From: Dehalococcoidia bacterium
GTDB taxonomy: Bacteria > Chloroflexota > Dehalococcoidia > Lucifugimonadales > JAAXIE01
Length of the DNA stretch: 64,000 nt
Assembly: GCA_965197805.1 (NCBI GenBank)
Contig: OZ240229.1
Span: forward strand, 1,295,823-1,359,822
Direction of reading: 5' to 3'
A program made the translations under genes and the position numbers. The notes under the pieces are model-generated. The model searched no databases. It saw nothing but the letters and a program-made list of their open reading frames with translations, and was not told the DNA's origin. Shown here piece by piece: positions 2,951 through 20,418 of the stretch. Each line of letters opens with the position of its first letter. Within the stretch, counting starts at the first letter, position 1.

Positions 2951-3023
2951 GTCAGCCGCCTTTCCGCTCTACTGGGATGTGGTAACTCCATGGTCATGGG
3001 GAGTCAGGGCACGCCCATCCTAA

Positions 3024-3044
3024 CCTTCCCCCTGAGGGGGAAGG
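3024..3044 (-). terminator. Hairpin downstream of the aquaporin gene (no U-tract)
   Basis: Perfect 9-bp stem CCTTCCCCC/GGGGGAAGG with a 3-nt loop, 23 nt after the stop at 3067. Member of a local CCTTCCCC/GGGGAAGG motif family. Confidence 0.3.
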
Positions 3045-3738: not shown

Positions 3739-3886
3739 CGGCGAGGCGCGGCCATGCGACTGTTCAGGATCCAGGCGTCTGTCCGGCTTGATTGGCCTCC
3801 GTAATACCGAGTTGCCCAGTAGTCCAAGCCGTAGAGTCCCGTCTAGGATACTTTGCAAAACCCCTTCCTCCTCGAAAGGGGAAGGT

Positions 3887-3947
3887 GGCTTTGTTCCAAA
3901 AACCTAGCTTGTTCCAATAATCGGCGAGTTGTTCCAAAAAAGCTAGC
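3887..3947 (+). repeat. Left-end array of three direct TTGTTCCAA-core repeats
   Basis: CTTTGTTCCAAAAACC (3889-3904), TAGCTTGTTCCAATAATC (3905-3922) and GAGTTGTTCCAAAAAAGCTAGC (3926-3947). The reverse complement of 3903-3922 matches 20280-20300 at 20/21 positions, with one extra A. Confidence 0.7.
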
Positions 3948-4634
3948 CCAGTTGACTAGTAGTGGGGGGCTGCAGAGAAGCATCTAGGCGTGACGGCACA
4001 AGGACGATATCTTGTCGACGCGGTAAGCGGTTGAGAAAGACGGCGCTCGACATGCGGGTTTTGGCCTACACCGAGGCTTTGTTGCACAATTCCAGCGTTT
4101 CGCAACAGCAGCTAGGTTTTGCGACAAGGCCAGCGGGCAGTACCATAACCTACCTGCCCCGCGCCCGGATGGATACGCGTGGCCAAATGCTTCTTTACTC
4201 TCCGGTATCTTGTACCACTCGCCACCTTCTGGGGGTATGGCGTAGGCGCGAATTGTCGGAACGGCATCGGGGGCAATTGCGTTGCAACTCGACCACTTGC
4301 CTGTTGGGGACTCCTCGGAGTCCGTCACGCGGTATTCTCGGATGGCCTTCTCCTGCTGCAGGGTCTCCCGGTCGCCCTACTGTTTCGGCAGTTCCATCAC
4401 CATCTCCAGCAGGGCTTTGCATCAGAATAGCCTCTTGCTGCAAAATACATCATCCTGCTACAAAATCCCCACCGAGGACATTGGGCTTCGCATCAAGACT
4501 TTCGGTTTATGGCACCCGATAAGGAGAGTTCGGAGGCCACACTCGACGGACTGGACTGGCCAGACGTGCTAGCTGGTCCTTCATCGGATAGCTAGCTGGC
4601 CGTAGGCGCGGTGGGCCATTAAATGTTCCTATGT

Positions 4635-5303
4635 TCACACTGTAGAGTGGTGGCCTACGCGAGCCCACAGGTGGGTAAGGCGGAAGGGCGAGATAGGGTA
4701 ACCGCGGACCAAGTCGTGTTCATATTCTGCGGTTGTTTCACCGTCACGGTGCCTGATGTCTAAGGGTGGAACAGACTCCGTAACAGCGATGGAGTTAATT
4801 CTAGTCAGCGCGTCATCCAGAAGAACCTTCTGCAAGTAGCCCACCATTGCGCCGCTTTGCATCCCCTTTCCATAACTATGATCTTCGTCGATGAAGCGGG
4901 CGATACCCGATCTAACGTACTCGCGGGCATATCTGGTGGCAGGATCGGTCAGCCGTTTGCACTCAACCACGAATTGCTTACAGGCATCGTTTTCATCCTC
5001 CGCGAGGTTGTCGATATAGGGCCAATAAATGTCGGGTCTTTTGAACTCTCGTGGAGTTTGGTGTAGGTCTGATGGTGCCGGCAGGTTACGACCGTCAAGA
5101 ACAGCCGGAGGAATGTGCGCTATATGCTGCCCGGCTCGATGGGACACGCGAATTAGAGTTTTGTACAATTCACGGTTGAGGCTATTCTCATCCGCATCCA
5201 GATATTGGTCGCCAAGCAACATCAAAGCTTCGCGCAGCAACTCTACGCAGGTCCTCACGTGGTCGCTCCAAAGGTCGATGGATGAGAATACTGGGCGTGT
5301 CAT
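4635..5303 (-). CDS. Small PD-(D/E)xK-type nuclease-like protein, putative restriction partner of the upstream MTase
   Basis: 222-aa ORF. 'RPDIYWP' is followed about 20 residues later by 'VVECKRL' (D...ExK core). Its start overlaps the MTase stop (ATGA at 5300-5303). Confidence 0.55.
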   Translation of the reverse strand: MTRPVFSSIDLWSDHVRTCVELLREALMLLGDQYLDADENSLNRELYKTLIRVSHRAGQHIAHIPPAVLDGRNLPAPSDLHQTPREFKRPDIYWPYIDNLAEDENDACKQFVVECKRLTDPATRYAREYVRSGIARFIDEDHSYGKGMQSGAMVGYLQKVLLDDALTRINSIAVTESVPPLDIRHRDGETTAEYEHDLVRGYPISPFRLTHLWARVGHHSTV

Positions 5304-8300
5304 AGCCTTCTGGCAGACATCAGTTGCGCGGCTGTCGCGTCAGCATCTTGCCAAGCTGCACTAGCACTCCATAAACGTCGCTCGTCACGCTTTACGATTA
5401 TGATCGATGTGTCAGTCACAGCTCGCACTGTGCCGTAACGCAACATTGATTGCGCTTGGGTTCTGTTCCATTCCACTCCGAGCCGATTCAATGCCGACCA
5501 CCAACCCTCGTCTCCCTCCTTATTCGGGAAGGGGAATCTATTCCCTTCACCGCCGAGGGTTTCAAAAACTACTGCGACCACACCTTCCACCGGCTCACGC
5601 CATATCCTCCAACTAAGTTCTCCAATAGCACGAAGCCTTTGGTTCCAAGCTCTAAGGAACACAATCAAGTACGGGTCCAGCCCTTCTTTACTGTGGGGGT
5701 CCAGGTCAGCTTCGGTACCTCGCACCGCGGCGATGTGAGCAACCGATTGAGTTGCGTCTGTACTCTGACTTACCCAGAAATCGGCCACTAGGCTACGCTC
5801 TGAGTCTGTGAGTTCGAAAAGGTCAGCCACCGCTTCGTCAACATGAGCCATATGAGCGGCAATACCATGTCTTGCGACTTGGTCACCGAGCGTGTTCATG
5901 TCGCGCAAGTCACCGACGGCCGTCCGAATCTTGCGAGTGGTTACGTCCCAGACTGCCGGCATCCGTGTTGGAAGTTCGAGTAGGTCCCCTGAGCGTACCT
6001 CGTCTGCCCAGGTTCCCCATGATCCAGACACCATATATAACCAATAACGCCCCAAGGACGACACAAGGGTCCCAAGAATGATCTCAGCCTGCCATGGTTG
6101 CAGATGGGTGAGAGAAATCCCGTATGTCGTATGGCGAAATGCAAAGGGTTCTGTTTCAAGCCTGGCATGTGGTCCAAATCCAGGGGACACCCCCCTGCGT
6201 ATTAGCAAGCGTTGTCCCCTGAACAGACGCTCGTCCGGCACAAATTTAACGCGCGATGGGACAGATTCAAACCACTCATCCTTGAGGGCTCCCCAAGAGT
6301 CGAATTTAACGAGGCTCCTCAAGTCGCGCAGTGTCATCGACGGCGAATGTCCTGTTGAGTCGTCCCCTCTCTGAAAACCGTAACCACAAAGCTTCTTGGA
6401 CTCCGTCCAATCGCGCAATTGGTCTTCGACCGCAAGGCGGGCCAAAAAAGCGTCATCACGCGGAGATCCGGCAGTATACGTTTTCCACAAATAGTCACGG
6501 GTACGTAATGAGGTTTGCACCACCATTTGCCGGTCCATACGCGCAAGTGCGGATGACCCACGTCTTCCGCGAGGGACGGGGCGAGCCGTTTCGTAGACGA
6601 CCATCCCGCTTCTTTGGTCTAGTGCACGACGAAACCGGACCAACATAAACGGAGCGACCCCAGTCTTAAAGAAATCTCTCCGGACATGGCTGAAGTTGAC
6701 TACGTGTTCAAGTTTCGCCTCTCCAAGCCACTGTTCACGGAATCTGCGAGACGTGGGCCTAGTATTTAGCAGGGCTTTCGCACTTATTAAGAGGGCAGCC
6801 ACCCCACCGGTCGCCAAGAGGTCTAAGGCTCGCCATAAGAAGAGCTGCGACGGACTTCGGTCTCCAATGGTACGATTGAGCCGAGAAGCCCACTGCTCTG
6901 CCTTAGACTTACCGCCTTTAAGTTCACTCCATGGCGGATTCCCAACTACAACGCCAAAGCCCTCTGTCGTCCAAGGCAATCCGTCCTGTTGCCCGGTATA
7001 ATGTTCGTTGTTCGAGGTATGTTCTCCCTGCCTGGGCGAGAAGGCGTCACCCACGACAAGCGGTGCCATATTCCGTCCCTGTTCTCCGCGCTGGTGGATT
7101 AGCCTAGGAAGAGGCCCGGCTTTCAGTATATCGTTTGGCTGTTGGTAATTCAGAAACGCGATGTATAGGCTGAAGGCAGCTAGCCTAATCGCACCTTCGT
7201 CGATGTCGCACCCTGCAATACGCTGCAATAGTAACTCTTGGAGACGGCCCCTAGTTAGGGGTCGTTCCAGTTTCAACATCTCGTGCCTTACTATTCGACG
7301 ATACGCTTCGACGAGAAAAATCCCTGACCCACATGCAGGGTCGCAGACGGTGGGCTCTTGCTCAAGGGTGTTGTCATCAAGTACGTCAGCAATAACGGAC
7401 CCAACCAATTCAGGAGGGGTATAATAGGCATCAGCTAACTTTTTGGTCACCTCCTCATGATGGAACAGTTCGTACATATTGGAAACAAGATCGGTAGGAA
7501 CAACACTAAAGTCATACGCCCAAAGGAAGAGCCTTTCTTGGTTAGCACTTATGTCCCCTTTCAGTAGGCTCTGGAGGAGGCATAGTTGTTCCTCAGTGAC
7601 AGCTTCGCGTTCGTCATTTTCGGCGATGAATAGGTCGCGGTTGAAGTGCCCAGCGAGTTGGTCAAATAGGGCGTAAGTAAGTTCTTTGCTCGCCAAGAAT
7701 CGAATGAAGTTACTTGTCGGACCAAAGTCTACTGGAGCCTCATTGACACCGACTCGATTGAGTGGTTCCGGAAGCTTCGACGCTACTTCATCAAAGTATG
7801 CATCGGTGAGAATGGTTCGGTCTTCGAGGTAACGGACAAGAATGGCACGCTCAATAAGGGTATGAGAGAGCCTACGAGTTAACCCTGCCGATACAAGGGC
7901 TGTAGTAGCCGAGCGGACATCACGCAACAGCTGTTGGTCGGCCCGTCCGGTTTGATTACCCATTTGAGGATGTTCAAACGTCACGCCCGATTCTAGGCGA
8001 GACCTGTGGAAACGAGAGAGCTGTTCTGCAACATCCGCCGCTCTTGTCACGACCTCTAGAGGCGTCAAAGGCCTCCTACTAACGCCGGGCGTCGTCGGAA
8101 GACTCGCGAGCGAATAGACACGAAGCTCGTCTCCAACTGCCAAGAACAGATATCGAGGCCGGGCAAGACTCCATGCTCGACGGTAGCAGTGGAGCACATC
8201 GCGTTCATCCGATTCGGCTGGTAGAGACGTAAAGACGAGAACCGGATCATCGTTCAGAAAAAAGACTCTTTCCGCCTTGACACGTGCGGCGAGCAACAGC

Positions 8301-8449
8301 CAGTCACCTACTTCGCGCCATCTAGACCGGTTGGAGTCAAAGGACGGGGCTTCCGTGGCTTCAAGTAACATGCCGCTGACTAAGTCAAGGTCGGCGTACA
8401 CACGATCAAGGAGTGGAGATGGTGGATAGGTGGAGGGCATTCTAGTCAT
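5300..8449 (-). CDS. Large gamma-class N6-adenine DNA methyltransferase (type IIG / Eco57I-PglX-like) with unassigned N- and C-terminal regions
   Basis: 1049-aa ORF with motif X 'AYYTPPELV', motif I 'DPACGSGIFLVEAY' and motif IV 'VVVGNPPWSEL'. The upstream helical region has 'FNRDLF'. The ~480-aa C-terminus is TRD-like. Confidence 0.8.
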   Translation of the reverse strand: MTRMPSTYPPSPLLDRVYADLDLVSGMLLEATEAPSFDSNRSRWREVGDWLLLAARVKAERVFFLNDDPVLVFTSLPAESDERDVLHCYRRAWSLARPRYLFLAVGDELRVYSLASLPTTPGVSRRPLTPLEVVTRAADVAEQLSRFHRSRLESGVTFEHPQMGNQTGRADQQLLRDVRSATTALVSAGLTRRLSHTLIERAILVRYLEDRTILTDAYFDEVASKLPEPLNRVGVNEAPVDFGPTSNFIRFLASKELTYALFDQLAGHFNRDLFIAENDEREAVTEEQLCLLQSLLKGDISANQERLFLWAYDFSVVPTDLVSNMYELFHHEEVTKKLADAYYTPPELVGSVIADVLDDNTLEQEPTVCDPACGSGIFLVEAYRRIVRHEMLKLERPLTRGRLQELLLQRIAGCDIDEGAIRLAAFSLYIAFLNYQQPNDILKAGPLPRLIHQRGEQGRNMAPLVVGDAFSPRQGEHTSNNEHYTGQQDGLPWTTEGFGVVVGNPPWSELKGGKSKAEQWASRLNRTIGDRSPSQLFLWRALDLLATGGVAALLISAKALLNTRPTSRRFREQWLGEAKLEHVVNFSHVRRDFFKTGVAPFMLVRFRRALDQRSGMVVYETARPVPRGRRGSSALARMDRQMVVQTSLRTRDYLWKTYTAGSPRDDAFLARLAVEDQLRDWTESKKLCGYGFQRGDDSTGHSPSMTLRDLRSLVKFDSWGALKDEWFESVPSRVKFVPDERLFRGQRLLIRRGVSPGFGPHARLETEPFAFRHTTYGISLTHLQPWQAEIILGTLVSSLGRYWLYMVSGSWGTWADEVRSGDLLELPTRMPAVWDVTTRKIRTAVGDLRDMNTLGDQVARHGIAAHMAHVDEAVADLFELTDSERSLVADFWVSQSTDATQSVAHIAAVRGTEADLDPHSKEGLDPYLIVFLRAWNQRLRAIGELSWRIWREPVEGVVAVVFETLGGEGNRFPFPNKEGDEGWWSALNRLGVEWNRTQAQSMLRYGTVRAVTDTSIIIVKRDERRLWSASAAWQDADATAAQLMSARRL

Positions 8450-8782
8450 TCACGGCTTCGCGGTTGTAGGGTCCGCAGCAGTGTGAATACGACTTTGCGG
8501 TCATATTCGGGAAGAACGCAAGGTCAAACGCCGAGCACACATTTAGTAGACACCCCGTACGGTGTCATCTGTGACTCGGGTATCTGCCGTGGCCTTGGGG
8601 GTGGTCCACGAGGGCCGCAAGCATCAGCTCCCCAATAGCTCGTTCCAAGCGCTCGGCTATCGTACCGTCCGCTTGACCATAAGCAATAATTGTAGTCTAA
8701 GCGTGGTGCTTATTGGGGAAGCCTATCACAGGGTTACGCCACTGTCGACCTGCGGAAACCGCCAGCGCCCCAGCTCCCCCGC

Positions 8783-9034
8783 CTACGCTACCGCCCGGAC
8801 CATCCAGCGCATCATCGCGGATTGTCCCGCCTTCACCCGCATAAGCACTGTAGCTAGAAAGGCCAAGCAAGACATTTGGGCGTGGAGGGTGATTTGACGC
8901 AACCCTCGCAGGCGGTGTCGCTCCAACCGGCGCGATTCCTTCACCGATTTGAAGACCCTCTCAATGGTGGCCAGGCGTGGATACGGCCGCATTGGTGCGC
9001 CAGAGGCTCCACACGTGGTGTGCGTCGCCATCAC
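8783..9034 (-). pseudogene. C-terminal remnant of an IS4/IS5-type DDE transposase
   Basis: 'ATIERVFKSVKESRRLERHRLRGLRQITLHAQMSCLAFLATVL' is the typical end of the DDE_Tnp_1 domain. No intact upstream ORF; the surrounding frames are broken. Confidence 0.6.
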
Positions 9035-9698
9035 GTGTGGAGAGTTCCGGGCACCGACCCGTTCTCTTATGTCGGGGACAGCACGGGCCAGCAGTTCCCG
9101 TAGGCCATGGTGCCCCTAATGCGGCTTGGCCTCTCCCAACGAATTGGCTATTGTGGCGAGAGGCTAGTGCCACTTTGGCGGTTTTGCCCCTGACTCCTAC
9201 GTTGGGTCCTCTTTCCAAAGCACACCCCGTGGCCGTAGCAATTAGTTGGACGGTTGTGCGGGTCTCAGGGAATTAGCGATGAATGTATTGCCTGATAAGA
9301 GCCCTATGAAACGCTGTTCGTTTAGGAAATAGAGAAGCTCCTTGAGGTCGCGGCGAGTGTTCGGCAAAGCAATCTTGTTGCTCTCCTATAACATTAGGTG
9401 AGCGGACAGCGTCGCAGGACAGGGCCTATTCCTACCGAGCACGCCGAGGGCCGGCCGCTTCAGGGATGACCGGGACCGTTCCTGCTGGTACGTCGTCTAC
9501 CAGAGTTATCGGATGAGGTTGTTGGCCGGTGCGGGAACGGCCAGCAGTGGAGGCGTCAGCGCTGTCTCCATCGCGCCATACCCGTAGTGTCGTTCCAGAA
9601 AGGCATCACGGTAGCAGGTCTTGCTACGACATTTATGGGGTATCTACTCTAACCAGTGCGGGGCGGGGCCCGGTTCACGCTGCGCAGCATGACCCCTC

Positions 9699-12600
9699 TC
9701 ACGTCGGTAGCACTACCTGATAGCAGACGACGCCAAGATCGTCTTCGGTGATGGGATCAGGAGCTCGTGGTGCCTCCACCGGCCGTAGGCCGAACCTCGC
9801 GACAACTTCGATGATGCGGCGGGAGCAGTCCGCCACAGTGATCCCGCCGCCTTCGTACTCCCGGCGGAGGTCCGACAACTCACGGCGCACGAGGTTGTTC
9901 CTGCCGGTGGACAGGGCCTGGTCTCCCTCGTCATATTCTTTACCAGTAGGAGCGTCCGGTAAGCGCAGCACGTCCAACGCCCAACGTTGACTAGCAGGCA
10001 GGGAGGCAAACCTTGTCTCGGGGTCGAGGAGCGCGTTGTGAGTCGTGCAGATGTCATCGGCGGCCACCGCAAAGAGGTGCTCAAGGTCAAGCCCCTCTGG
10101 GAGAGGGCATCCGGCCTGCTGTTGGGGGTCTATAAGCCGAACCATCGGCAAGTCTTCGCGGTACAGTATTTCCCCTGATTGGGACACAGTGCGCCAATAG
10201 CGCTCATCCCTGCGTGTCCGACAGGCGAAGAATACCGCAGGCTCCGCCAGTGTGGACGACCGTTGCACGAAAGCGGCCCCGATTCCCCAAGGCAGACCTT
10301 GGAGCCTGCTCACTTCACCTTCCTCGGCGGCGCGCCGGAGATGGGAGCGGAAAAGCTCACCCGCGAATGCCGAGCCCCCAACGCCCTCCTGTTCGTCCAA
10401 CAGCGCAGCATCCCCTTTGGAAAGACGTTCCACAAACGTGCTCAGGTCTGCGTAAACCTGCGACTCCATCTCTACGTCGGCCAATACAGGGGTCTCCATG
10501 CCCACTGAGGCGTTCGCAGCCATGATCTTGGACTGGAGCTTGGCTTCCAGCTTGAGCAGCCTGTCAAGGTCACCCTGTTTAGGGAGCAGGGTGTAGAGAT
10601 ATGCGGTGTCGTGGGGGCTGCGCAGGCGAATTATGCGACCATTACGCTGCACCACTCGCTGAGGGTTCCAAGGCATATCGAACGAGAGCACTGCTTGAGC
10701 CTGTTGTAGGTTCTGGCCCTCAGACAGTATGTCGGTGCTGATAATGACGTCCACTTCACCGCCATCTGGTCGAAATCCCGGCTCGTCCCGCACGGACTCT
10801 GGGCAGAACCGCTCAAGCTCTCTGGTGCGGGCGTCCGCACTGGTCTCCGAGCCGATGACCACCGTCCAATCACGGTTGTCCAGCACTTCCGGTTGCCTTT
10901 CGATTTGCTCTTTCAGATAAGTTGCTGTGTCCTGAAATGCCGTGAACACGGCGACCTTCTGAGACGGCGTTACGGCCATGACGTCCTTCAGCGTATCCAG
11001 CTTGGGGTCGGGGCTGTGCCTCAGGCTTTCCAACCGCGCCGACAGGGTAGCTAGGCTATCCCGGTCACTCTGCAAGTCAGACAAGAACTGGTCGTCGAAT
11101 CTGTTGGCGGGAATGCCTCCCTCCGAGCCAGCCAGTGCCTCGTCGATCAGGTCAGCGCTGAGGAACGTGTCGTCATCGGCATCGCCGACCAAGTCGCGGA
11201 TGACTTCCGGCGGGGGGACCACTCCCCGCTCTGTGATGACATGGAGCATCACGTCATTCGCATTTCTCATCCTGTTCACAGTTTGCAGAGCCGCGTACCA
11301 TGACGACTCGAAGCGTTTTAACAGCTGTGACTGCATCAGCCCGGCAAGCGCATCTTCTGAAGCGGATACGCCCTCATTGTCTAGCCTATAGGCAGATAAG
11401 CGGTACCTCGCCATTGTCAGACCGTCGACTCCATCGTAGATAAATTGCGCGATTCCAGGGTGTGCGCTGTCCAAGTCGTAGCGGCGCTCGTGCAACTCTG
11501 GCTCTGGGAACTTTACAGGCGTCCCGTCCACGAATCGCTCGTTACGGTACCGTTCCTTGACGAAGGCCCGGTCCCGTCGCACTGTCAGAGCGTCGATTAG
11601 GGGGAACAGCTTCGCCTCCGACAGATTCTCTGACTTCGACGCCCCGGCCTCAGCAAAGAGTGTCCGCAGACTGGTAATCTTCAGCGGCTCGCCGTTGAAG
11701 GCACTATCGTGCCTACCGAACAGGAGGAAGAGGTTATGCAGGTCCCAGAGGGAGTTGTTGACCGGAGTCGCAGTGAGGAGCAGTAGCTTCTTCGTAGTGC
11801 CTCCCATCAGCCGGTCCAGAGCTGCGTACCAGGTGTTGTTTATATTGCGGTAGGCGTGGGCCTCATCAATGATGACGAACCGGTACACGTCCTTGTTCAC
11901 CGGAAGCACCCGTCGCCCGCCGTTGGAAGCCAGTTGGCAGTCCTGCGCCAACTCCTGATAGGACACGACGGTTCCAGGCAGGTTTTCCTCGGCTAGGCGC
12001 TGCTCCCACAGGCGGTCCCGAAGCTGGGCCGGGGAGATTACCAGCACGTGCTGACCCAGGTCGCGGGTGTGCTCCCGGATCAACTGCACGCCGATCTCAG
12101 TCTTGCCCATGCCCACGCCGTCGGCATACAGGACGCCGCCGTAGCGGTCCAGAATCCGTTTTGCCCGCGCCAACCCATCTCGCTGGAAAGCGGTTAGGGC
12201 GTGTAGGTCAGGTATCGGCATTTCGTCATCCAGTTCGTCTCCATAGAGTTCCAGTAGTGCTCGTAAGAAGACGGTCTGAGGGTCGCTCTCCAAGGCAGGT
12301 GGTCGCAGCAGTTCCAACAGTTCTTCGCGGAAGTCCAGGGCATCGTCCCATAGGCGCCGGTGCCAGCCCAACGCCATGCCAACAACATTGGGTTGGTAGT
12401 GCACCATGCCCAGTTCGAGATTGGCGACGAGTCCACCTTGCGTGAGGTTGGCCGACGACACCAGGGCCGCCCCAGGTCCAATCGTAGATCCGCCGTCATT
12501 CAGTTGACCGATGACGTAAGCCTTGCCGTGGAGGAAACGTCGAATGTAACGACGTACTGCAACAGCGTCGGATTCAAAGAAGCGGGTCACCCGGTCCAAG

Positions 12601-12932
12601 ACAGCCCGCCGAAAGGCTGGAAAGGCAGAGAAGTCCCTCTCACGACGCAGAGCTGACACGGACTGGTCGAAACGGTCGGCCACGGTTTCCCCCGGCGAGC
12701 CAGCTAATCCCTCTGGCACCGCTCCGACCAACAGGCGAGTAGGTTGTTCCCTCCCCGCGGCTATCTTGGCTAGCGCGTCCAGCCCCTCAAGACCAATATA
12801 GCCTGTGGCCACATTCAGCGGCGCGGAGTAGTACTCTGCCAGCCATACCAACGCTTGGTGGTGGTTACCGTAGTCAACGTTGTCCACCAGTTCATAGGAG
12901 CCGTGTTGCGAGGCGTTGCTGCTGGCCGTCAT
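9699..12932 (-). CDS. PLD-family nuclease domain fused to an SNF2-family helicase/translocase
   Basis: 1077-aa ORF. PLD motif 'FLHGKAYVIG...LVSSANLTQGG' at aa 133-167. SNF2 motifs 'DGVGMGKT' (aa 271-278), 'IIDEAHAYRN' (aa 354-363), 'LLLTATPVNN' and 'FDMPWNPQRVVQRNGRIIRLRS'. The ~280-aa C-terminus is unassigned. Confidence 0.85.
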   Translation of the reverse strand: MTASSNASQHGSYELVDNVDYGNHHQALVWLAEYYSAPLNVATGYIGLEGLDALAKIAAGREQPTRLLVGAVPEGLAGSPGETVADRFDQSVSALRRERDFSAFPAFRRAVLDRVTRFFESDAVAVRRYIRRFLHGKAYVIGQLNDGGSTIGPGAALVSSANLTQGGLVANLELGMVHYQPNVVGMALGWHRRLWDDALDFREELLELLRPPALESDPQTVFLRALLELYGDELDDEMPIPDLHALTAFQRDGLARAKRILDRYGGVLYADGVGMGKTEIGVQLIREHTRDLGQHVLVISPAQLRDRLWEQRLAEENLPGTVVSYQELAQDCQLASNGGRRVLPVNKDVYRFVIIDEAHAYRNINNTWYAALDRLMGGTTKKLLLLTATPVNNSLWDLHNLFLLFGRHDSAFNGEPLKITSLRTLFAEAGASKSENLSEAKLFPLIDALTVRRDRAFVKERYRNERFVDGTPVKFPEPELHERRYDLDSAHPGIAQFIYDGVDGLTMARYRLSAYRLDNEGVSASEDALAGLMQSQLLKRFESSWYAALQTVNRMRNANDVMLHVITERGVVPPPEVIRDLVGDADDDTFLSADLIDEALAGSEGGIPANRFDDQFLSDLQSDRDSLATLSARLESLRHSPDPKLDTLKDVMAVTPSQKVAVFTAFQDTATYLKEQIERQPEVLDNRDWTVVIGSETSADARTRELERFCPESVRDEPGFRPDGGEVDVIISTDILSEGQNLQQAQAVLSFDMPWNPQRVVQRNGRIIRLRSPHDTAYLYTLLPKQGDLDRLLKLEAKLQSKIMAANASVGMETPVLADVEMESQVYADLSTFVERLSKGDAALLDEQEGVGGSAFAGELFRSHLRRAAEEGEVSRLQGLPWGIGAAFVQRSSTLAEPAVFFACRTRRDERYWRTVSQSGEILYREDLPMVRLIDPQQQAGCPLPEGLDLEHLFAVAADDICTTHNALLDPETRFASLPASQRWALDVLRLPDAPTGKEYDEGDQALSTGRNNLVRRELSDLRREYEGGGITVADCSRRIIEVVARFGLRPVEAPRAPDPITEDDLGVVCYQVVLPT

Positions 12933-12947
12933 ATCTCCCTCTTTACC

Positions 12948-15900
12948 TTAAAGGTCCTCGAACTTCTCCACCACCTGATTGCGGTAGGCCGGGCCAACGG
13001 CGTCCTCAGTGAAGTCTGTGAAGATGAAACGCAATTCATCCTCCGCAAGACCGTAGGCTCTCGCCACCAGCGCGTCTATCTCTGCTCGCATATCGTTGCG
13101 CTGGACGTCGGTCAGCGGGCCATATTCGACTTCGGCCCCAATTGAAAATTCGTAGAATCGTTCGTCGACGCAGGACAATCGCGCCGCAAGTCGGCCAATG
13201 CGGACCCATGGAGTGTTGTCGGGAGGGGGGAAGGTAAGCATATTCAGAATGAAATGGTTAAAGTTCATCTCGACGTATCTACGGGCTAACCAATCGAATG
13301 TGACTGAATTGATCACACCCAATACGGCTGCTTGTGGCAGTGCATTCCATCCACTGAATACCAGATAGGGAGCCGCATTCGTAAGAGGTGTTCGGGGAGG
13401 CACTATGCATGCATTCATGGTGCGCGAGTTCGTTCGGTTGGTGACGTGCCCATAAGCAATTCGGCAGTGGTTTATTGGATGAGTGTCAGGATTTGAGAGG
13501 AAAGTGGACGGGAATATGCTCTTGAAAACACGGGAACGCATTCGCTTATTGTGTACAAAGTCTAAAACCTCATCCCACACACAGTATCCAGCAGGTTCAT
13601 TGCCATGCGGATCGTACTGGTCAAATGAACGACCCTTCCATACTGCGACACCTTGAGAATGGGAGAACAGGGCGCGCTGCTGCGTCTCATGTAATTCCGC
13701 ATAGGGAACTAGATGAGACGCAGCAGCGCGCCCTGTTGCGGTCGTTGTACTTTGGGGATTCTGTAGACAGTCGAACTGAACTCCCCCCCGTATCTTCGTC
13801 AGCAGGTTAGAATGTATCTGGCTTGGTAGGAGAGGCACCACTTTGGCACTTCCCAAAGAGGATGCCGGGATACTAACGCCCTGACTACGGGTGACTTCTT
13901 GGAACTCTCTGAGGCTTGATGATGGCCCCGTGATTCGGAAGGTGGTTAACTCGTAAGGCGTGCTACGCTGGCCGGTCAGTAGCGCCACCGTATAACGAGG
14001 CTCCATATCGAACGCCCAGCGCTTTGCATTCAGCAGATAGTCCACCTTGCTCACTGTTGTCTGCCCAAATAGCCATTCCCTGAATCCCCTAGCTCCCTCC
14101 GCAAGGAACGCTGTTCTGGGTAGCACCACGCCCAGACGCCCTTCCTGCCTGACGAGGTGGCTGTACCGCTCGCAGAAAAGCTGATAAAGGTCTGTGTCGC
14201 CCACGCCTTGCAGCTGATATCCTCCACTATGGGAAAAGAACGCCCGGATGTTTGCTAGACGTACTTGCTCCGCTTCAAACTCCCCACGCCAGTTGGGGTT
14301 CTCTTCATCAAGTGCTGCAATACGTGCGCGCCTGTCCGTCAAATTGCTTATACCTCGCAGTCCGGGTTCCCGCAATAAGTAGAAGCGCAGTTCTTCGATG
14401 GTGACTTCGTTCCACGGGGGATTACCGACGACCACGTCGAACCCCGGGCGCTCACGGTGGAAGACGTTGGGAAACTCCAGTGGCCAGTGAAAGAATCGGT
14501 ACTGGGCAGCGGTGCCCGAGGCCTCGGCCATTACAGTTGCTATCTCAGTGGTCCTGCCGTCGTCACGCGCGACGATCGCGTCAGCATGGGTTTCCAGTGT
14601 GTGACGGGCACCTTCCAGACCTAGAGGTTCCGCCGCCCACAGGTCGAAGACGGACCGCAGACCTGCAGTGGCTCCGTGAAGGTCTGCGCCCATCTCCTCG
14701 GAGCGTTTCACCTCGTCGGGGGTTCGGTCTGGGTTCTCAGCCAGCGTACGCTGCAGATCGGCCGCACGCGTCATCGCATCAGCGACGGCCTGACCGGTGA
14801 ACATCGGGCTATCATTTGCGCCCACCACCAATGGGTCGGCCACTCCAATGAGGGCGTCGCCACACTTGAGATTGCTGCCCAGATAGGAGAGAGCTAGACC
14901 AGGGACGAAGGAAGCCAACCACAGAGTGACGTTTGCCACCTCCACTGCCATTGGTGAAAGGTCAACGCCGTAGATACAACGCTTGAGGATGAGCCGCCGA
15001 AGCAGTTCTCCGTCCTCAGGTGGCCGCGAGGCCAGCCCGTTTTCCTGGCTCAATTCGCTGAGTTGCTGGGCAATACTAGGTAGTCCGCCGACTTCCGCGA
15101 GGAAAATCCCCATTCGGTCAGCTATGATGCCCAAGGCAGCTGTTAAGAAGTGGGCACTACCCATTGCAGGGTCCACAATTGAAAAATCGAACAGCCTGCG
15201 GGTTGCTTCTTTGGGGTTTCGGACAGCCACATTCCTGATTTCTTCCAAGTGTTCATCAAGAGCGGGAAGTAGCGAATGGTTGAGGAGATGGTCTACGAAC
15301 TCACGCCTTGTGTAAAATACGCCCCCAGCTTTGCGTCCACCCGCCTCGGCTTGGTAGTAGAGCTGTGCTTTAGTCACCTCCGGCTGCTCCCCGGCGCGCG
15401 CAGGCCTAAACACGTCCTGCTTGGGATCGTAGGCTAAATCTTCGGGAGCGCGCGTAAGGCGCAGGGTCAACAACGCTTCGTAAATGGCTCCAAGGTGGCC
15501 AATCTGCAGGCCAGCATAGTCCAAGCCCGGAGCGTCAGGCTTGTCGGTTTCATAGGCGATGGCCATCAATGCCGGGACCAGATACACATCAGCGACCTCA
15601 GCCCGTTCCAGCAGATCGCTACCCGGGAAGCCGGCGGCAGCGAAAAGGCTGCCGTTGTAGGCTGGCACCGCGGCAGACCGGTCTCCCGTCCGCACCATCC
15701 GCACCAGCGTACGGAGCCGGTCCCATCGCTGTGTAGCTCTCCGGCTCAAAGACGACTGAGCCAGTCGGGAATCTTCGGCAAGCTGGAGGGCGCTATGTGG
15801 CTGGTATGCTGCCGATCCAATAGGCAAGTAACCGCGGGCTTCTGTGTGCAACAGGAACATGAAACGGAATACCAAGGTAAGTGCAGCCTCTTCTATCTGC

Positions 15901-16937
15901 CGGAGCTGCCCTCGGTCGCTTAAGTCAGCGCCCTGTGTTTCAAGCCACTCTCCAAGCCCTCGTGCTATGTTCGGCAGTGCATCCTGGATGAGCCTCTCTT
16001 CTAGACCCTTGCGTAGCTCCTCTCCGAAGTACTTAACCTCATTGACCCATGTAGTTAGCCACCCGTTCTCCTTCAGCGATTCCGGTGCGAGAAGGCCAAG
16101 GTAGAGGCGGTCTTTCCGCTCCAACTCACCCAGGTCTATCTCCACATGCTGCCCAGTCGCAGGTCCTACCGGGGGTCTCCGCTGAAATAAACGATATCGG
16201 CCTTCTGCAGCTAACACACCCCAATACGCTCCGTGTTGGGCAGAGTCTGCCAATACCATCCCCTCGGGCAGTTCGCCGTTGTCCGTGAGGCGACTGAACT
16301 GATTCGCGTCGCGGTGAAGGTGGAGTACGGCAACTGGAGTTTTTTCGTATCTCAGTAAGTAGCCGCGTTGGGGCAACTGCTCGACCTGGTAGCCCATGCC
16401 CTGGAAGAGAGCACGCCAGTCCATACCGGCAGTAGGTGTTATGCCTTCGATGGCACGGGACAGTCGCTGCTCGTTAATGGGCCAGCGTAGGCGGTCCCGC
16501 AAGAAATGAGGAGTAAGGAGGTCCTTGACCCGGAGGCCGGGGACCACTGCCTCCTCAAGACGGCTGAACTCCCGCGCCAAGAACGACGCGGCTTCACGGG
16601 TTGCCAAGCCTCGGCTCGTCTCCAACAGGCCAAGGACTCGATGGGCAGGCAGCTCGCGAACTGGGCGGGCATCCTGTGGCCCAGCGACGCGTACTTTAGC
16701 TTCCTGGTCTGAAGGAGCCAGCAAGACGACTGGATGGGGCTGACGGCCTTTCCTAGCTTCCCACAATCTGCGCAGATCAGCATCGCTCGCTGCGTGATCG
16801 GCCCACAGGAGGTGGTAGGACGACGTTTCCCAAGCTCTCGCTGAAGACCCCGCCTGAGACGTCCAGCTTCGGCCTTGGCCGTAAGCAGCTTCCAAGCGTG
16901 CAATCAACTGGCTGGTGCTAGGTGATTTCATAGCCAT
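12948..16937 (-). CDS. PglX / type IIG-like gamma-class N6-adenine DNA methyltransferase
   Basis: 1329-aa ORF with 'YNGSLF' (aa 427-432), 'RKAGGVFYTRREFV', motif I 'DPAMGSAHFL' (aa 589-598) and motif IV 'VVVGNPPWNEV'. 15-nt gap with a GAGGGAG SD before the helicase gene. Confidence 0.8.
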   Translation of the reverse strand: MAMKSPSTSQLIARLEAAYGQGRSWTSQAGSSARAWETSSYHLLWADHAASDADLRRLWEARKGRQPHPVVLLAPSDQEAKVRVAGPQDARPVRELPAHRVLGLLETSRGLATREAASFLAREFSRLEEAVVPGLRVKDLLTPHFLRDRLRWPINEQRLSRAIEGITPTAGMDWRALFQGMGYQVEQLPQRGYLLRYEKTPVAVLHLHRDANQFSRLTDNGELPEGMVLADSAQHGAYWGVLAAEGRYRLFQRRPPVGPATGQHVEIDLGELERKDRLYLGLLAPESLKENGWLTTWVNEVKYFGEELRKGLEERLIQDALPNIARGLGEWLETQGADLSDRGQLRQIEEAALTLVFRFMFLLHTEARGYLPIGSAAYQPHSALQLAEDSRLAQSSLSRRATQRWDRLRTLVRMVRTGDRSAAVPAYNGSLFAAAGFPGSDLLERAEVADVYLVPALMAIAYETDKPDAPGLDYAGLQIGHLGAIYEALLTLRLTRAPEDLAYDPKQDVFRPARAGEQPEVTKAQLYYQAEAGGRKAGGVFYTRREFVDHLLNHSLLPALDEHLEEIRNVAVRNPKEATRRLFDFSIVDPAMGSAHFLTAALGIIADRMGIFLAEVGGLPSIAQQLSELSQENGLASRPPEDGELLRRLILKRCIYGVDLSPMAVEVANVTLWLASFVPGLALSYLGSNLKCGDALIGVADPLVVGANDSPMFTGQAVADAMTRAADLQRTLAENPDRTPDEVKRSEEMGADLHGATAGLRSVFDLWAAEPLGLEGARHTLETHADAIVARDDGRTTEIATVMAEASGTAAQYRFFHWPLEFPNVFHRERPGFDVVVGNPPWNEVTIEELRFYLLREPGLRGISNLTDRRARIAALDEENPNWRGEFEAEQVRLANIRAFFSHSGGYQLQGVGDTDLYQLFCERYSHLVRQEGRLGVVLPRTAFLAEGARGFREWLFGQTTVSKVDYLLNAKRWAFDMEPRYTVALLTGQRSTPYELTTFRITGPSSSLREFQEVTRSQGVSIPASSLGSAKVVPLLPSQIHSNLLTKIRGGVQFDCLQNPQSTTTATGRAAASHLVPYAELHETQQRALFSHSQGVAVWKGRSFDQYDPHGNEPAGYCVWDEVLDFVHNKRMRSRVFKSIFPSTFLSNPDTHPINHCRIAYGHVTNRTNSRTMNACIVPPRTPLTNAAPYLVFSGWNALPQAAVLGVINSVTFDWLARRYVEMNFNHFILNMLTFPPPDNTPWVRIGRLAARLSCVDERFYEFSIGAEVEYGPLTDVQRNDMRAEIDALVARAYGLAEDELRFIFTDFTEDAVGPAYRNQVVEKFEDL

Positions 16938-17082
16938 CCACTACTTTATAGACATGCGACAATTTGCACGGGTGATCAGGACCTAGAGGAGAGGCAACAC
17001 AACGTAATGTTGCAAGCTGCCTCTCAATAAATTCCGGAGCCACGTAAACTGGCCAAGCGGGCTGCGCTTCCAGCTCCTTGCC

Positions 17083-17265
17083 TCAGCTCCCACGCCGGTA
17101 GCGGTATTCCTTGTCCCAGTTGGCGCTCTTGCACTTTGGGCAGACGCGTGGCCGTTCCTTGTTCAAACCTTTACTGGTCCACTCGTGTCCGCAACGGCAC
17201 CTGTAGGCCGTTACCTCGATCTTGAATGAACCTGGACGTTTGCCGTCGTCGTCTGCGGTCGCCAC
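17083..17265 (-). CDS. Small Zn-ribbon protein, first gene of the MTase-helicase operon (possible controller)
   Basis: 'CRCGHEW...CPKCKSANW' gives two Cys pairs. GTG at 17265 lies 6 nt after GGAGG (17276-17272) and downstream of the predicted minus-strand promoter. The track ORF extends to 17316, into the palindrome. Confidence 0.45.
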   Translation of the reverse strand: MATADDDGKRPGSFKIEVTAYRCRCGHEWTSKGLNKERPRVCPKCKSANWDKEYRYRRGS

Positions 17266-17287
17266 CTTTGACCTCCGGTGCAATTCA

Positions 17288-17344
17288 CTAATACTATAGA
17301 GTATTAGGGTTGACACTACAACCCGTAATACTCTATAGTATTAG
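17288..17344. promoter_or_regulatory. 25/26-bp inverted repeat containing back-to-back divergent promoters
   Basis: CTAATACTATAGAGTATTAGGGTTG (17288-17312) pairs with CAACCCGTAATACTCTATAGTATTAG (17319-17344). Plus strand: TTGACA (17310-17315), N18, TATAGT (17334-17339). Minus strand: TTGTAG (17321-17316), N17, TATAGT (17298-17293). Confidence 0.6.
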
Positions 17345-17370
17345 TATACTACTGAGCATAGGGTGATGCT

Positions 17371-18633
17371 ATGGTGGAAGCGGCCACCGAACTTGACCTC
17401 CACGGTTCCGACGATGGCCGTCGGCAGCGGGGCCTTGCGATTGCAGCCATCGCTCGCATCACCAAGACCAAGCTGGGCTACAAGGTCCCCTCTCAATCCG
17501 GCGAGGGTTCTTATGCGGTGAACCTCGCTGACGACGACCCCTACTGCAGTTGCCCAGACTTTGAGAAGCGACAGGTGTCTTGCAAGCATATCTACGCAGT
17601 ACGGTACTTCATCCAGCGCGAGGGGCAACAATCTAGCGCTGTGGTGCACTCTCAGAGCCTCCGGCCGACCTATCGGCAAGACTGGCCCGCATATAATGCG
17701 GCACAGGCCCACGAGGGTGAGCACTTCCATACTCTCCTTCGGGAACTCTGCGACACTGTGCCACAGCCCCTACAGGCAGGTAAAGGACGCCCACGGCTGC
17801 CTTTGGCCGATGTGGTATTCGGCATCGGCCTCAAGGTCTACTCAACGTTCTCCGGGCGTCGTGCCATGTCGAACATCCGCACTGCTGAGGCAAACGGTCT
17901 CCTAGATCACGCGCCCTCATTCACCAGCGTGTTCCGATACTTGGAGAATCCTGCCCTGACGCCTGTGCTCAAGTCCTTGATTCAGCAGAGCTCCCTGGCC
18001 CTCACGTCCGTCGAGACCGAATTTGCCGTGGACTCCAGCGGGTTCGCCACCACGACCTATCACCGATGGTTTGACCACAAGTGGGGCAAGGAGATCAAGG
18101 AGGCGGAGTTCGTTAAGGCGCATCTGATCTGCGGAGTTACTACCAACATCGTGACGGCTGCCGAGGCTTCTGTAACTCGAGACAACGATGCTCCTTACCT
18201 GGCCCCGTTCGTGCAGACCACTGCGCAACACTTCATCGTCAATGAAGTCTCCGCCGACAAGGCCTATCTGACGAAACGGAACCTACACGCGGTCCAAGAG
18301 GTAGGAGGTACTGCCTACATCCCATTTAAGTCCAATTCCGTCGCTAGTAACCCCAAGGTGAAGCGGGACCCTCTTTGGACCAAGATGTATCACTACTATC
18401 ATCTCAACCGGGCTGAGTTCTTACAGCACTACCACAAAAGGTCCAACGTGGAAACGACGTTCTCCATGGTCAAAGCGAAGTTTGGCTCCGCAGTCCGTGC
18501 CAAGACTCCGGTCGCACAGATCAACGAGGTCTTGACAAAGGTTCTGTGTCACAATGTCTGCGTGGTTATACAGTCCGCCTACGAGCTGGGGATTAACCCG
18601 GTGTTCTCTCCAACAATGCCCGAGTCGGCCTAG
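17371..18633 (+). CDS. SWIM zinc-finger + DDE (IS4/IS5-type) transposase, paralogue A
   Basis: 420-aa ORF. SWIM motif 'CSCPDFEKRQVSCKHIYAV'. DDE candidates 'FAVDSSGF', 'VSADKAYL' and 'YHKRSNVETTFSMVKAKFG'. Confidence 0.8.
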   Translation: MVEAATELDLHGSDDGRRQRGLAIAAIARITKTKLGYKVPSQSGEGSYAVNLADDDPYCSCPDFEKRQVSCKHIYAVRYFIQREGQQSSAVVHSQSLRPTYRQDWPAYNAAQAHEGEHFHTLLRELCDTVPQPLQAGKGRPRLPLADVVFGIGLKVYSTFSGRRAMSNIRTAEANGLLDHAPSFTSVFRYLENPALTPVLKSLIQQSSLALTSVETEFAVDSSGFATTTYHRWFDHKWGKEIKEAEFVKAHLICGVTTNIVTAAEASVTRDNDAPYLAPFVQTTAQHFIVNEVSADKAYLTKRNLHAVQEVGGTAYIPFKSNSVASNPKVKRDPLWTKMYHYYHLNRAEFLQHYHKRSNVETTFSMVKAKFGSAVRAKTPVAQINEVLTKVLCHNVCVVIQSAYELGINPVFSPTMPESA

Positions 18634-18968
18634 GACCGGGTACCCCTTTGCGCCCTGCGCCTCGAAGGCCACAGATGCCTTATGGTCCCCGACTTCCATA
18701 CCTTCTCGCTCCCACGGGCAGCACATGCATCCTTAAGCAGCTTATCTCCGTCGCTTTGTGACCCTGCACGTTCCGCTGCCTCTGGATCCGGCCAAGTCTC
18801 TAGGTCTGCGACATTCGGTAGCAACCAGCGTGGCAACCGCAATCTATTGTGTCTTCAGACAATCAGGTGCACGTCCCATAAATCCCCCGAAAGTATAGAC
18901 CATCACGGTTGGCACAACGACACGCTACACCGTTAGAGTATGAGGATGTTCCTTAAGTTGGGAGCCGA

Positions 18969-20279
18969 TTGATGCTCGAAGTGGTCACGGCCCTAAGCCC
19001 CGACGATCCCGACGACGGTGACACTGGCCGCCAATCGCGGGGCCTTGCCATCGCAGCCATAGCTCAGATCAGCAAGAACAAGCTGGGATACAAAGTGCCG
19101 TCACAATCTGGCAACGGCACTTACGTCGTAAATGTCTCCGATGAAGACCCGTATTGTAGTTGTCCAGATTTCGAGAAGCGACTAGCTAGATGCAAACACG
19201 TCTATGCCGTGGAGTTCCTGATACAGCGTGAGGAACGGATAGACGGTACAGTCATGGACACTAGAGCTGTCCGCGTTACTTACGGACAAGACTGGCCCGC
19301 CTACAATGCCGCGCAGGCCCACGAGGCCGAGCACTTCGTGACACTACTGCGTGACCTTTGTGACGCGGTGGTGATACAGCCAACGCAGCAGGGCAAGGGC
19401 AGACCGCGCCTGCCCTTGGGTGACGTGGTACTCGGTATTGCTCTGAAGGTCTATTCCACGTTCCCGGGGCGCCGCGCGATGTCGAATATCCGTACTGCCA
19501 AGGCCAACGGGTTGATGGATCATGTGCCCTCGTTTACTAGCGTGGCCCGTTACATTGAGAACCCTGCCCTTACTCCGGTCCTAAAATCCCTGATTGAACA
19601 GAGTGCCCTACCGCTCTCATCAGTGGAAGTCGATTTTGCCGTGGACTCCAGTGCGTTTTCCACCACCACGTATCAGCGATGGTATGACCACAAATGGGGC
19701 AAGACGATTAAGGAGTCCCAATGGGTGAAGGCCCACCTTATTGCTGGGGTCAAGACCAACATCGTGACCTCCGCAGAGGCGACTGTCACCCAAGCCCACG
19801 ATAGTCAGTACTGGCCAGCATTCGTGGAGACCACGGCGCAAAACTTCAAACTAAACGAGGTTTCCGGGGACAAGGCCTACCTAAGTCGAAAGAACCTGTG
19901 GGTGGTGCAAGCGCTCGGCGGAACAGCCTACATCCCCTTCAAGACCAACTCCGTGGCCCACAACTCCAAGGCAGCGGGGGATCACCTTTGGCTCAGGATG
20001 TTCCACTACTACAATTACAACCGAGAGGAGTTTCTGCAGCACTACCATAAACGATCAAACGTTGAGGCTACGTTTCACATGATCAAGGCAAAGTTTGGCG
20101 CACGAGTACGGTCCAAGACTCCGACGGCCCAGGTCAATGAAGTGCTGACCAAGATTCTATGCCATAATATCTGCGTCTTGATTCAGTCGGTCTACGAACT
20201 GGGAATCACTCCGGTTTTCAGCCCACCAAAAATTTTTGGAACAGAAGGGCCAGCTGTTCCAAAAATGGCGTGGGAATAG
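18969..20279 (+). CDS. SWIM zinc-finger + DDE transposase, paralogue B
   Basis: 436-aa ORF (TTG at 18969, ATG at 18972). 'CSCPDFEKRLARCKHVYAV', 'FAVDSSAF', 'VSGDKAYL' and 'YHKRSNVEATFHMIKAKFG'. The 3' end runs into the right-end repeats. Confidence 0.8.
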   Translation: MMLEVVTALSPDDPDDGDTGRQSRGLAIAAIAQISKNKLGYKVPSQSGNGTYVVNVSDEDPYCSCPDFEKRLARCKHVYAVEFLIQREERIDGTVMDTRAVRVTYGQDWPAYNAAQAHEAEHFVTLLRDLCDAVVIQPTQQGKGRPRLPLGDVVLGIALKVYSTFPGRRAMSNIRTAKANGLMDHVPSFTSVARYIENPALTPVLKSLIEQSALPLSSVEVDFAVDSSAFSTTTYQRWYDHKWGKTIKESQWVKAHLIAGVKTNIVTSAEATVTQAHDSQYWPAFVETTAQNFKLNEVSGDKAYLSRKNLWVVQALGGTAYIPFKTNSVAHNSKAAGDHLWLRMFHYYNYNREEFLQHYHKRSNVEATFHMIKAKFGARVRSKTPTAQVNEVLTKILCHNICVLIQSVYELGITPVFSPPKIFGTEGPAVPKMAWE

Positions 20280-20298
20280 GATTATTGGAACAAAGCTA
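20232..20298. repeat. Right-end repeat array of the candidate transposon
   Basis: ATTTTTGGAACAG (20232-20244) and CTGTTCCAAAAAT (20254-20266) form a perfect 13-bp palindrome with a 9-nt loop. The terminal copy is GATTATTGGAACAAAGCTA (20280-20298). Confidence 0.7.
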
Positions 20299-20418
20299 GG
20301 GGAAGGTTGGGATGGGGGTGGAAGACATGAATTGCAAGCTACGCCCCGTGTACAAGGAGCCCACGCCTCACGTTAGCATCATCGAAATACAGGGAGTCTG
20401 TCGGGATAGAAGAGGCCG

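Follow-up and report, generated by a model that had tools for sequence, protein, structure and literature searches.

The closest described relatives of the transposases analyzed here, as far as sequence comparison indicates, are those of IS903, a 1.06-kb insertion sequence (IS) of the IS5 family that duplicates 9 base pairs (bp) of its target. The closest solved fold is that of Tn5 (IS50, IS4 family), whose single gene also produces an inhibitor; Tn5 transposase acts as a dimer, and Tn5-type enzymes work as dimers in trans. In eukaryotic Mutator-like elements (MULEs) a SWIM finger is fused to the transposase, C-terminal to an IS256-like catalytic domain. Tn7-type transposons, which encode TnsA and TnsB, often carry defence cargo (PMC8649781). 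We analyzed a stretch of 64,000 nucleotides of a Dehalococcoidia bacterium (Chloroflexota; contig OZ240229.1, positions 1,295,823 to 1,359,822), hereafter called the window, in which a transposon of 16,411 bp (3887-20297) carries at its right end two adjacent transposase genes in the same orientation, A and B. We lean towards the view that an IS903-related cargo transposon, whose single transposase gene encoded a SWIM-DDE protein, long ago duplicated this gene in tandem to give A and B, and that both are working subunits needed for its spread. A mixed (hetero-oligomeric) A/B transposase is probably the best reading of their co-retention.

The proteins of the two genes correspond closely to what the first-pass annotation of the window had described: two collinear open reading frames (ORFs) of 420 and 436 amino acids (aa), two-thirds to three-quarters identical by eye, each with an N-terminal SWIM finger and intact candidates for the D, D and E residues, B alone having a C-terminal extension encoded by terminal repeats. 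The ORF calls gave the same lengths; ORF B opens at a TTG at 18969 (436 aa), and the database protein (P0001) begins one codon later, at the ATG at 18972 (435 aa). BLASTP aligned A and B collinearly with one gap and 286 identical residues out of 399 (72%). Both proteins exceed the Pfam gathering thresholds for SWIM (PF04434; A 29.1 bits, B 33.4 bits, threshold 19.6) and for DDE_Tnp_1 (A 56.8 bits, B 66.7 bits, threshold 23). The CxCxnCxH signature of the SWIM finger, a putative zinc-binding site, is found in A (C59/C61/C71/H73) and in B (C62/C64/C74/H76). The D/D/E triad (D221, D296 and E361 in A; D225, D300 and E365 in B) and the Y-(2)-R-(3)-E-(6)-K signature, or YREK (Y354-R357-E361-K368 in A; Y358-R361-E365-K372 in B), are intact in both, and all these positions, SWIM ligands included, are invariant in an alignment of 93 family members. 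With DDE_Tnp_1, triad and signature, A and B belong to the IS4/IS5 (Tn5-like) DDE superfamily. The predicted structure of B (mean predicted local distance difference test score 86.9) has Tn5 transposase as its best match in the PDB (1muh, 3ecp; Foldseek probability 1.00, E = 4e-4), and a search of PDB chains by sequence gave no match. The two proteins differ at both extremities. The C-terminal tail PPKIFGTEGPAVPKMAWE, coded by the repeats ATTTTTGGAACAG / CTGTTCCAAAAAT at 20232-20266, is present in B only, and the N-terminus of A lacks three residues of the family motif TALGPxDPDDGD and has H in place of D11. Fixed differences between A and B are densest in the N-terminal 33 residues and in the catalytic core, in a pattern that is not interpretable.

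The superfamily and the chemistry are already known ones. The similarity with IS903, whose reference sequence was taken from a Klebsiella plasmid (L088), extends over the core and the termini. B aligns with the IS903 transposase over 306 residues, beginning at its very N-terminus (NW.xYN..., GRP), with 20% identity (E = 6e-9); both have a YREK-type DDE core; and the first nine terminal bases, GGCTTTGTT, are common to IS903, whose ends in L088 read GGCTTTGTTGAATAAATC / GATTTATTCAACAAAGCC, and to the window element. Of the NCBIfam models, NF033579 scores highest with both A and B (113.7 and 117.5 bits), and the IS903 transposase itself matches it at 353 bits. The classification by hidden Markov model that the first pass had envisaged therefore yields a nearest model and no membership: both scores lie below the cut-off of 140 bits, and since the architecture differs as well, the A/B family is not placed in the IS903 group. 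A and B possess an additional N-terminal SWIM domain of ~100 residues; each end contains three binding-site repeats, versus a single 18-bp inverted repeat (IR) in IS903; a divergent zinc-ribbon (Zn-ribbon) gene is conserved, and this lineage has two transposase genes; finally, the elements measure 2.1-16.4 kb and carry cargo. The window element is likewise not a simple IS (~1 kb, one transposase of ~307 aa, no passengers), given its 16,411 bp, its cargo and its two transposases of 420 and 435 aa. Tn5 shares the DDE core with a beta-strand insertion and the YREK signature, and differs in having one gene, an inhibitor produced from that gene and no SWIM domain. Tn7-type elements also combine two proteins (TnsA and TnsB) in one cargo transposon with several transposase-binding repeats per end, but TnsA (a restriction-enzyme-like nuclease) and TnsB (DDE) are unrelated whereas A and B are paralogues with 72% identity, and the window element has no ATPase or TniQ-type partner, save for a weak sub-threshold match of a 77-aa protein to the TniQ zinc ribbon (E = 0.008). 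As for MULEs, the CxCxnCxH finger is common to both, but the SWIM domain of A and B is N-terminal to a DDE_Tnp_1 domain of IS5/IS903 type.

A single pair of ends brackets the two genes and the cargo (Table 1). The 64-kb window contains exactly six copies of the motif TTGGAACA, a 13-mer searched with at most two mismatches: three at 3891-3941 and three at 20232-20293, where 0.92 would be expected by chance in the whole window; none of 100 shuffled sequences reached six. The right terminus of the element reads ...GGAACAAAGCT, and homology with three other loci carrying the pair (L002, L004 and L085) breaks off exactly at 20296. No TTGGAACA-type repeat or GGCTTTG terminus that could provide A with ends of its own was found in the window near A or between A and B, in agreement with the absence of an IR between the genes reported at first pass. 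A composite transposon was considered and rejected: A and B sit together on one side of the cargo, only a single pair of ends exists, and no repeats separate the genes. The insertion site itself has the form CCCCTT-N9-AAGGGG (3861-3886). In the right flank, a sequence of 22 nt, GGGGAAGGTTGGGATGGGGGTG (20299-20320), has a 91% inverted copy at 3010-3031, ~860 bp to the left of the element, and may be a dispersed host repeat targeted by the element.

Table 1. Features of the transposon carrying A and B (coordinates in the window; strand left empty where none applies)
Feature	Coordinates	Strand	Description
Target-site duplication, left copy	3877-3886		AGGGGAAGGT; identical 10-mer at 20298-20307
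Left end	3887-3941	+	Terminal GGCTTTGTTCC and three direct subterminal repeats TTGTTCCAA(A/T)AA at 3891-3903, 3909-3921 and 3929-3941
Cargo	3962-16937		Five ORFs of 186, 222, 1049, 1077 and 1329 aa
Zn-ribbon protein gene	17083-17316	-	77 aa; divergent from A; first gene of the conserved transposition module
Paired palindromes	17287-17345		Two 7-4-7 palindromes TAATACT-N4-AGTATTA, 37 bp apart
Transposase paralogue A	17371-18633	+	420 aa, ATG start; SWIM and DDE; without the tail encoded by the right end
A-B spacer	18634-18968	+	335 bp
Transposase paralogue B	18972-20279	+	435 aa from ATG; SWIM and DDE; tail and stop codon within the right end
Right end	20232-20297	+	Three repeats at 20232-20244 (+), 20254-20266 (-) and 20281-20293 (+); ends ...TTGGAACAAAGCT
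Target-site duplication, right copy	20298-20307		AGGGGAAGGT; perfect 10-bp match to the left copy

The pair A + B is a unit that travels together with changing cargo. Five other loci (L002, L003, L004, L085 and L086) contain, at 90-97% DNA identity, the same 3.2-kb module, which runs from the Zn-ribbon gene through A, the spacer and B to the right end; homology starts at 17079-17093 and ends at 20296. Since L002 and L085 agree in genes and flanks, the five loci stand for no fewer than three additional distinct elements. The genes adjoining the module vary from locus to locus (BREX-like, ResIII/methylase and others), as do the right flanks, and members of the A-type and B-type protein clusters co-occur on contigs of at least five distinct lengths. 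The ORF of A is intact in the window, L002, L003, L085 and L086; L004 is a 1x contig, and the frameshifts in its A may be sequencing errors. Left ends of the pair-bearing elements L002, L004 and L085 were not found within the 10 kb examined; a candidate at L002:8622 was rejected, as it has no matching target duplication. These results do not support domestication, one of the possibilities raised in the first-pass annotation: the ends are intact, the 10-bp target duplication is perfect, and the module lies beside different cargo in different places.

Both copies are under purifying selection. Between elements, whole-gene ratios of nonsynonymous to synonymous substitution rates (dN/dS) lie in the range 0.13-0.23 in A and 0.14-0.19 in B, and no upper bootstrap limit exceeds 0.39. 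In the catalytic core dN/dS is 0.12-0.20 for B and 0.06-0.10 for A, the lowest value for any part of either gene. Among 150 columns with at least 90% conservation in 133 other family members, 4 are altered in A and 5 in B, so that each protein keeps ~97% of the family-conserved residues. The whole-gene dN/dS of A and this degree of retention indicate that A is not decaying. In a neighbour-joining tree of 50 taxa the A and B clades group as sisters with a bootstrap support of 96% (100 replicates), and each clade by itself has 100% support. Taken with the 28% protein divergence, this sisterhood implies a single, ancient origin of the pair inside this lineage. The same tree topology could also result from gene conversion between the adjacent genes; no sign of recent conversion was found, A of the window being no nearer to B of the window than to B of L002. 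The first-pass annotation had listed, among its possibilities, a tandem duplication with one copy decaying: the duplication stands, as an old one, and the decay does not, dN/dS being low in both genes. A plausible origin is a head-to-tail dimer that lost its inner junction, leaving two genes inside one pair of ends; through such a deletion the upstream gene would lose the tail that the end encodes, which is the state of A.

The frequency of such pairs was examined in the wider family. A and B each match more than 7,000 protein clusters of ~435-aa SWIM + DDE proteins, which bear no informative name, one being labelled just "transposase". Among species-representative genomes, most of those that carry the family belong to Dehalococcoidia and other Chloroflexota, Planctomycetota, Acidobacteriota and Myxococcota. 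In a collection of 5.8 billion proteins the A and B types themselves account for three and two clusters only, respectively. Outside this lineage, an adjacent same-strand full-length pair was found in none of 80 genome loci and in none of 80 metagenome loci, 52 of the latter holding enough upstream sequence to reveal one. A single transposase is thus the norm of the family, and the arrangement of the window is as unusual as the first-pass annotation had supposed. That annotation had also reasoned that the pair would reduce to a simple decaying duplicate if related elements carried a single transposase and copy A showed relaxed selection; the former was found in the survey of 160, the latter was not (dN/dS 0.13-0.23). 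Both ends could be mapped in 26 relative loci (~21 distinct elements). These elements, of 2.1-10.5 kb, have GGCTTTG termini, mostly three subterminal repeats per end and a stop codon inside the right end; their target duplications are of 9 or 10 bp, depending on how the terminal G/C is counted, that of the window being a 10-mer. Identical copies of 4,403 bp at three sites (L019, L021 and L046), and further identical copies in L028/L029 and in L069/L070, indicate recent activity of the family.

A search of the literature on SWIM domains with IS5, IS903, DDE or cargo transposons and on paralogous or heteromeric transposases returned nothing relevant. In a plasmid collection no full-length family member was present, the matches being ordinary IS5 transposases at ~25% identity. 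No description of a SWIM-IS903-like family, nor of a retained paralogue pair in it, was found in the literature or in plasmid annotations, ISfinder not being among the sources.

The region upstream of A and the spacer between the genes bear on how the pair would be expressed. A promoter-like site reading into A (TTGACA-18-TATAGT, 17310-17339) is overlapped by both palindromes, which are probably operators. It is the only strong promoter-like site before either gene; since, moreover, the spacer contains no terminator-like site and B has its own ribosome-binding site (GGGAG, 7 nt upstream of the ATG), A and B are probably co-transcribed from this operator-controlled promoter. The Zn-ribbon protein may be a repressor or a DNA-binding partner acting with the palindromes as operators. 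Homologues of this protein occupy the equivalent position in 20 more distant loci, and a Zn-ribbon gene with paired palindromes in its promoter region is also seen in L001 (9668-9966). The spacer is 76-78% identical between the window and L002/L004, as against 89-93% for the coding sequences, which suggests that it evolves about neutrally, close to the synonymous rate; it is 91% identical between the window and L003. A conserved block ahead of B, TTGGCA..TAGAGTAT..GGGAG, is an exception. The spacer contains no terminal repeats, matches no Rfam family and shows no RNA fold signal (z-score -0.24). Two candidate origins of the spacer were rejected: as a copy of the region upstream of A (local alignment score 22 versus 18.5 +/- 2.2 for shuffles, 34 of 300 shuffles equalling it), and as a dead Zn-ribbon gene (no tblastn match). 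The sequence GCTTTGTGA at 18754-18762 in the spacer, kept in all four aligned loci, resembles the family left terminus and may be a relic of an inner left end; the 7-mer match has a chance expectation of ~4%.

How would such a pair work? A and B, transcribed together from the promoter upstream of A, would bind the three TTGTTCCAA-type sites of each end; the parts in contact with the DNA would probably be the N-terminal SWIM region and, just after it, a helical region. The proteins would assemble into a mixed A/B transpososome on the 3+3 sites, and the element would move by a DDE reaction of Tn5/IS903 type, producing a target duplication of 9-10 bp. That both proteins are needed is suggested by the consideration that a gene made dispensable by its partner should not remain under purifying selection. 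Of the three possibilities raised at first pass, a heteromeric two-protein transposase is accordingly the most attractive, on the ground of co-retention. The strongest form of this proposal, an obligate hetero-oligomer of two catalytically competent paralogues within a large, apparently undescribed, defence-carrying and hairpin-inserting SWIM family, is advanced only tentatively, and we hold it to be somewhat less probable than not. Several observations weigh against joint action. Co-retention under selection is the sole argument for it, and purifying selection between transposon copies can also mirror an ancestor that active copies shared recently. Relatives with one gene have ends of the same layout, so that one protein evidently suffices there, and the six end repeats of the window element form one sequence class, not two, giving no hint of one protein per end. 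All loci with the pair are closely related, sharing at least 89% DNA identity, and come from a single set of ENA long-read assemblies. Finally, single copies are not immune to decay: B has a frameshifted tail in L002 and L085, B of L086 is cut by an IS5/DUF772-type element (11983-13173), and L087 holds a lone B remnant.

Some of these observations also feed the explanation that we consider next in probability, though unlikely: A and B would be redundant duplicates, each a self-sufficient homomer for the same ends, kept by dosage in a long cis-acting element or not yet lost. Single-gene elements with the same end layout do transpose, as the identical 4,403-bp copies show, both copies of the window look fully competent, and the end repeats form a single class. 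If this were so, however, loss of either gene would be neutral, and dN/dS well above the observed 0.13-0.23 as well as lineages with one intact gene would be expected; both copies are still intact after ~28% protein divergence since the duplication, and no duplicate was kept in 160 other family members. A division of labour without shared catalysis appears a little more doubtful again; here one copy would be the transposase, and the other, A, would have turned into a regulator or inhibitor, or into a partner with an architectural or target-selecting role. Truncated or altered transposase derivatives serve as inhibitors, for example the Inh protein of Tn5; B would be the likelier transposase, its gene running into the right end as in all relatives, and A is altered at the N-terminal motif and has no tail. 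Yet A keeps the triad, the YREK signature and 146 of the 150 family-conserved positions, and its catalytic core has the lowest dN/dS anywhere, whereas a pure regulator needs no active site.

Two other explanations are far less probable. A could be simply dying after a recent duplication, as its lack of a tail, its position internal to the element and the single gene of the relatives might suggest. This is very hard to reconcile with an ORF that is intact in five loci, with a dN/dS of 0.13-0.23 and with an A clade that is old and distinct. Slightly less credible still is the chance juxtaposition of two separate insertion sequences. Whole family elements lying head-to-tail exactly 9 bp apart do exist, and the spacer sequence GCTTTGTGA resembles a left terminus; but no terminal repeats or GGCTTTG ends flank A, both genes and the spacer move as one block in five other loci, and one target duplication brackets the whole 16.4 kb. 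Side-by-side insertion sequences may be how the pair began; they are not what it is now.

Further observations concern the structure and the cargo of these elements. The head-to-tail arrangements, in which the 9 bp correspond to a shared target duplication, are seen in L082 (7040-7125) and L051 (8420-8460), the pair in L051 consisting of two different family members. In L011/L012 (8442-11098) a family transposase gene is split by an insertion of ~1.3 kb. Many family insertions lie in short hairpins of the type TCTCCC-N5-GGGAGA (flanks of L026, L028, L029, L034, L035 and L065), which suggests targeting of a structure or of a terminator. Within the pair-bearing module, L004 is a mosaic, its A being near that of the window (95.7%) and its B near that of L002 (95.6%). 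Synonymous divergence is uneven as well: when B of the window is compared with B of L002, dS drops from 0.86 in the N-terminal domain (codons 1-103) to 0.15 in the core, and a similar unevenness affects codons 1-100 of A in L085. Parts of the module, especially the region of the SWIM domain, have been swapped by recombination.

The cargo of the window element looks like anti-phage defence. The 1049-aa ORF is type IIG restriction-modification-like, the 1077-aa ORF is an SNF2/DrmD-like helicase and the 1329-aa ORF is a type IIG/DrmMI-like methylase of the Eco57I family; the two small ORFs (186 and 222 aa) matched no family. Between the 1049-aa and 1077-aa genes, ~1.25 kb of cargo (8450-9698) is devoid of ORFs of 150 aa or more, and the 1329-aa gene includes a 33-nt inverted repeat (13666-13737; 94% complementary, 6-nt loop). 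Several other family elements carry restriction-modification, BREX-like or DISARM-like genes. The family may thus be an unrecognised vehicle of defence genes in Chloroflexota, Planctomycetota and Acidobacteriota.

Textbooks describe Tn5/IS5-type transposases as homodimers, and a lineage in which selection keeps two intact paralogues would show a route from homomer to heteromer. If the proposed joint action of A and B is true, a homomeric Tn5-like transposase would here be caught after splitting into two specialised subunits, with the single-gene sister elements that have the same ends as natural controls.

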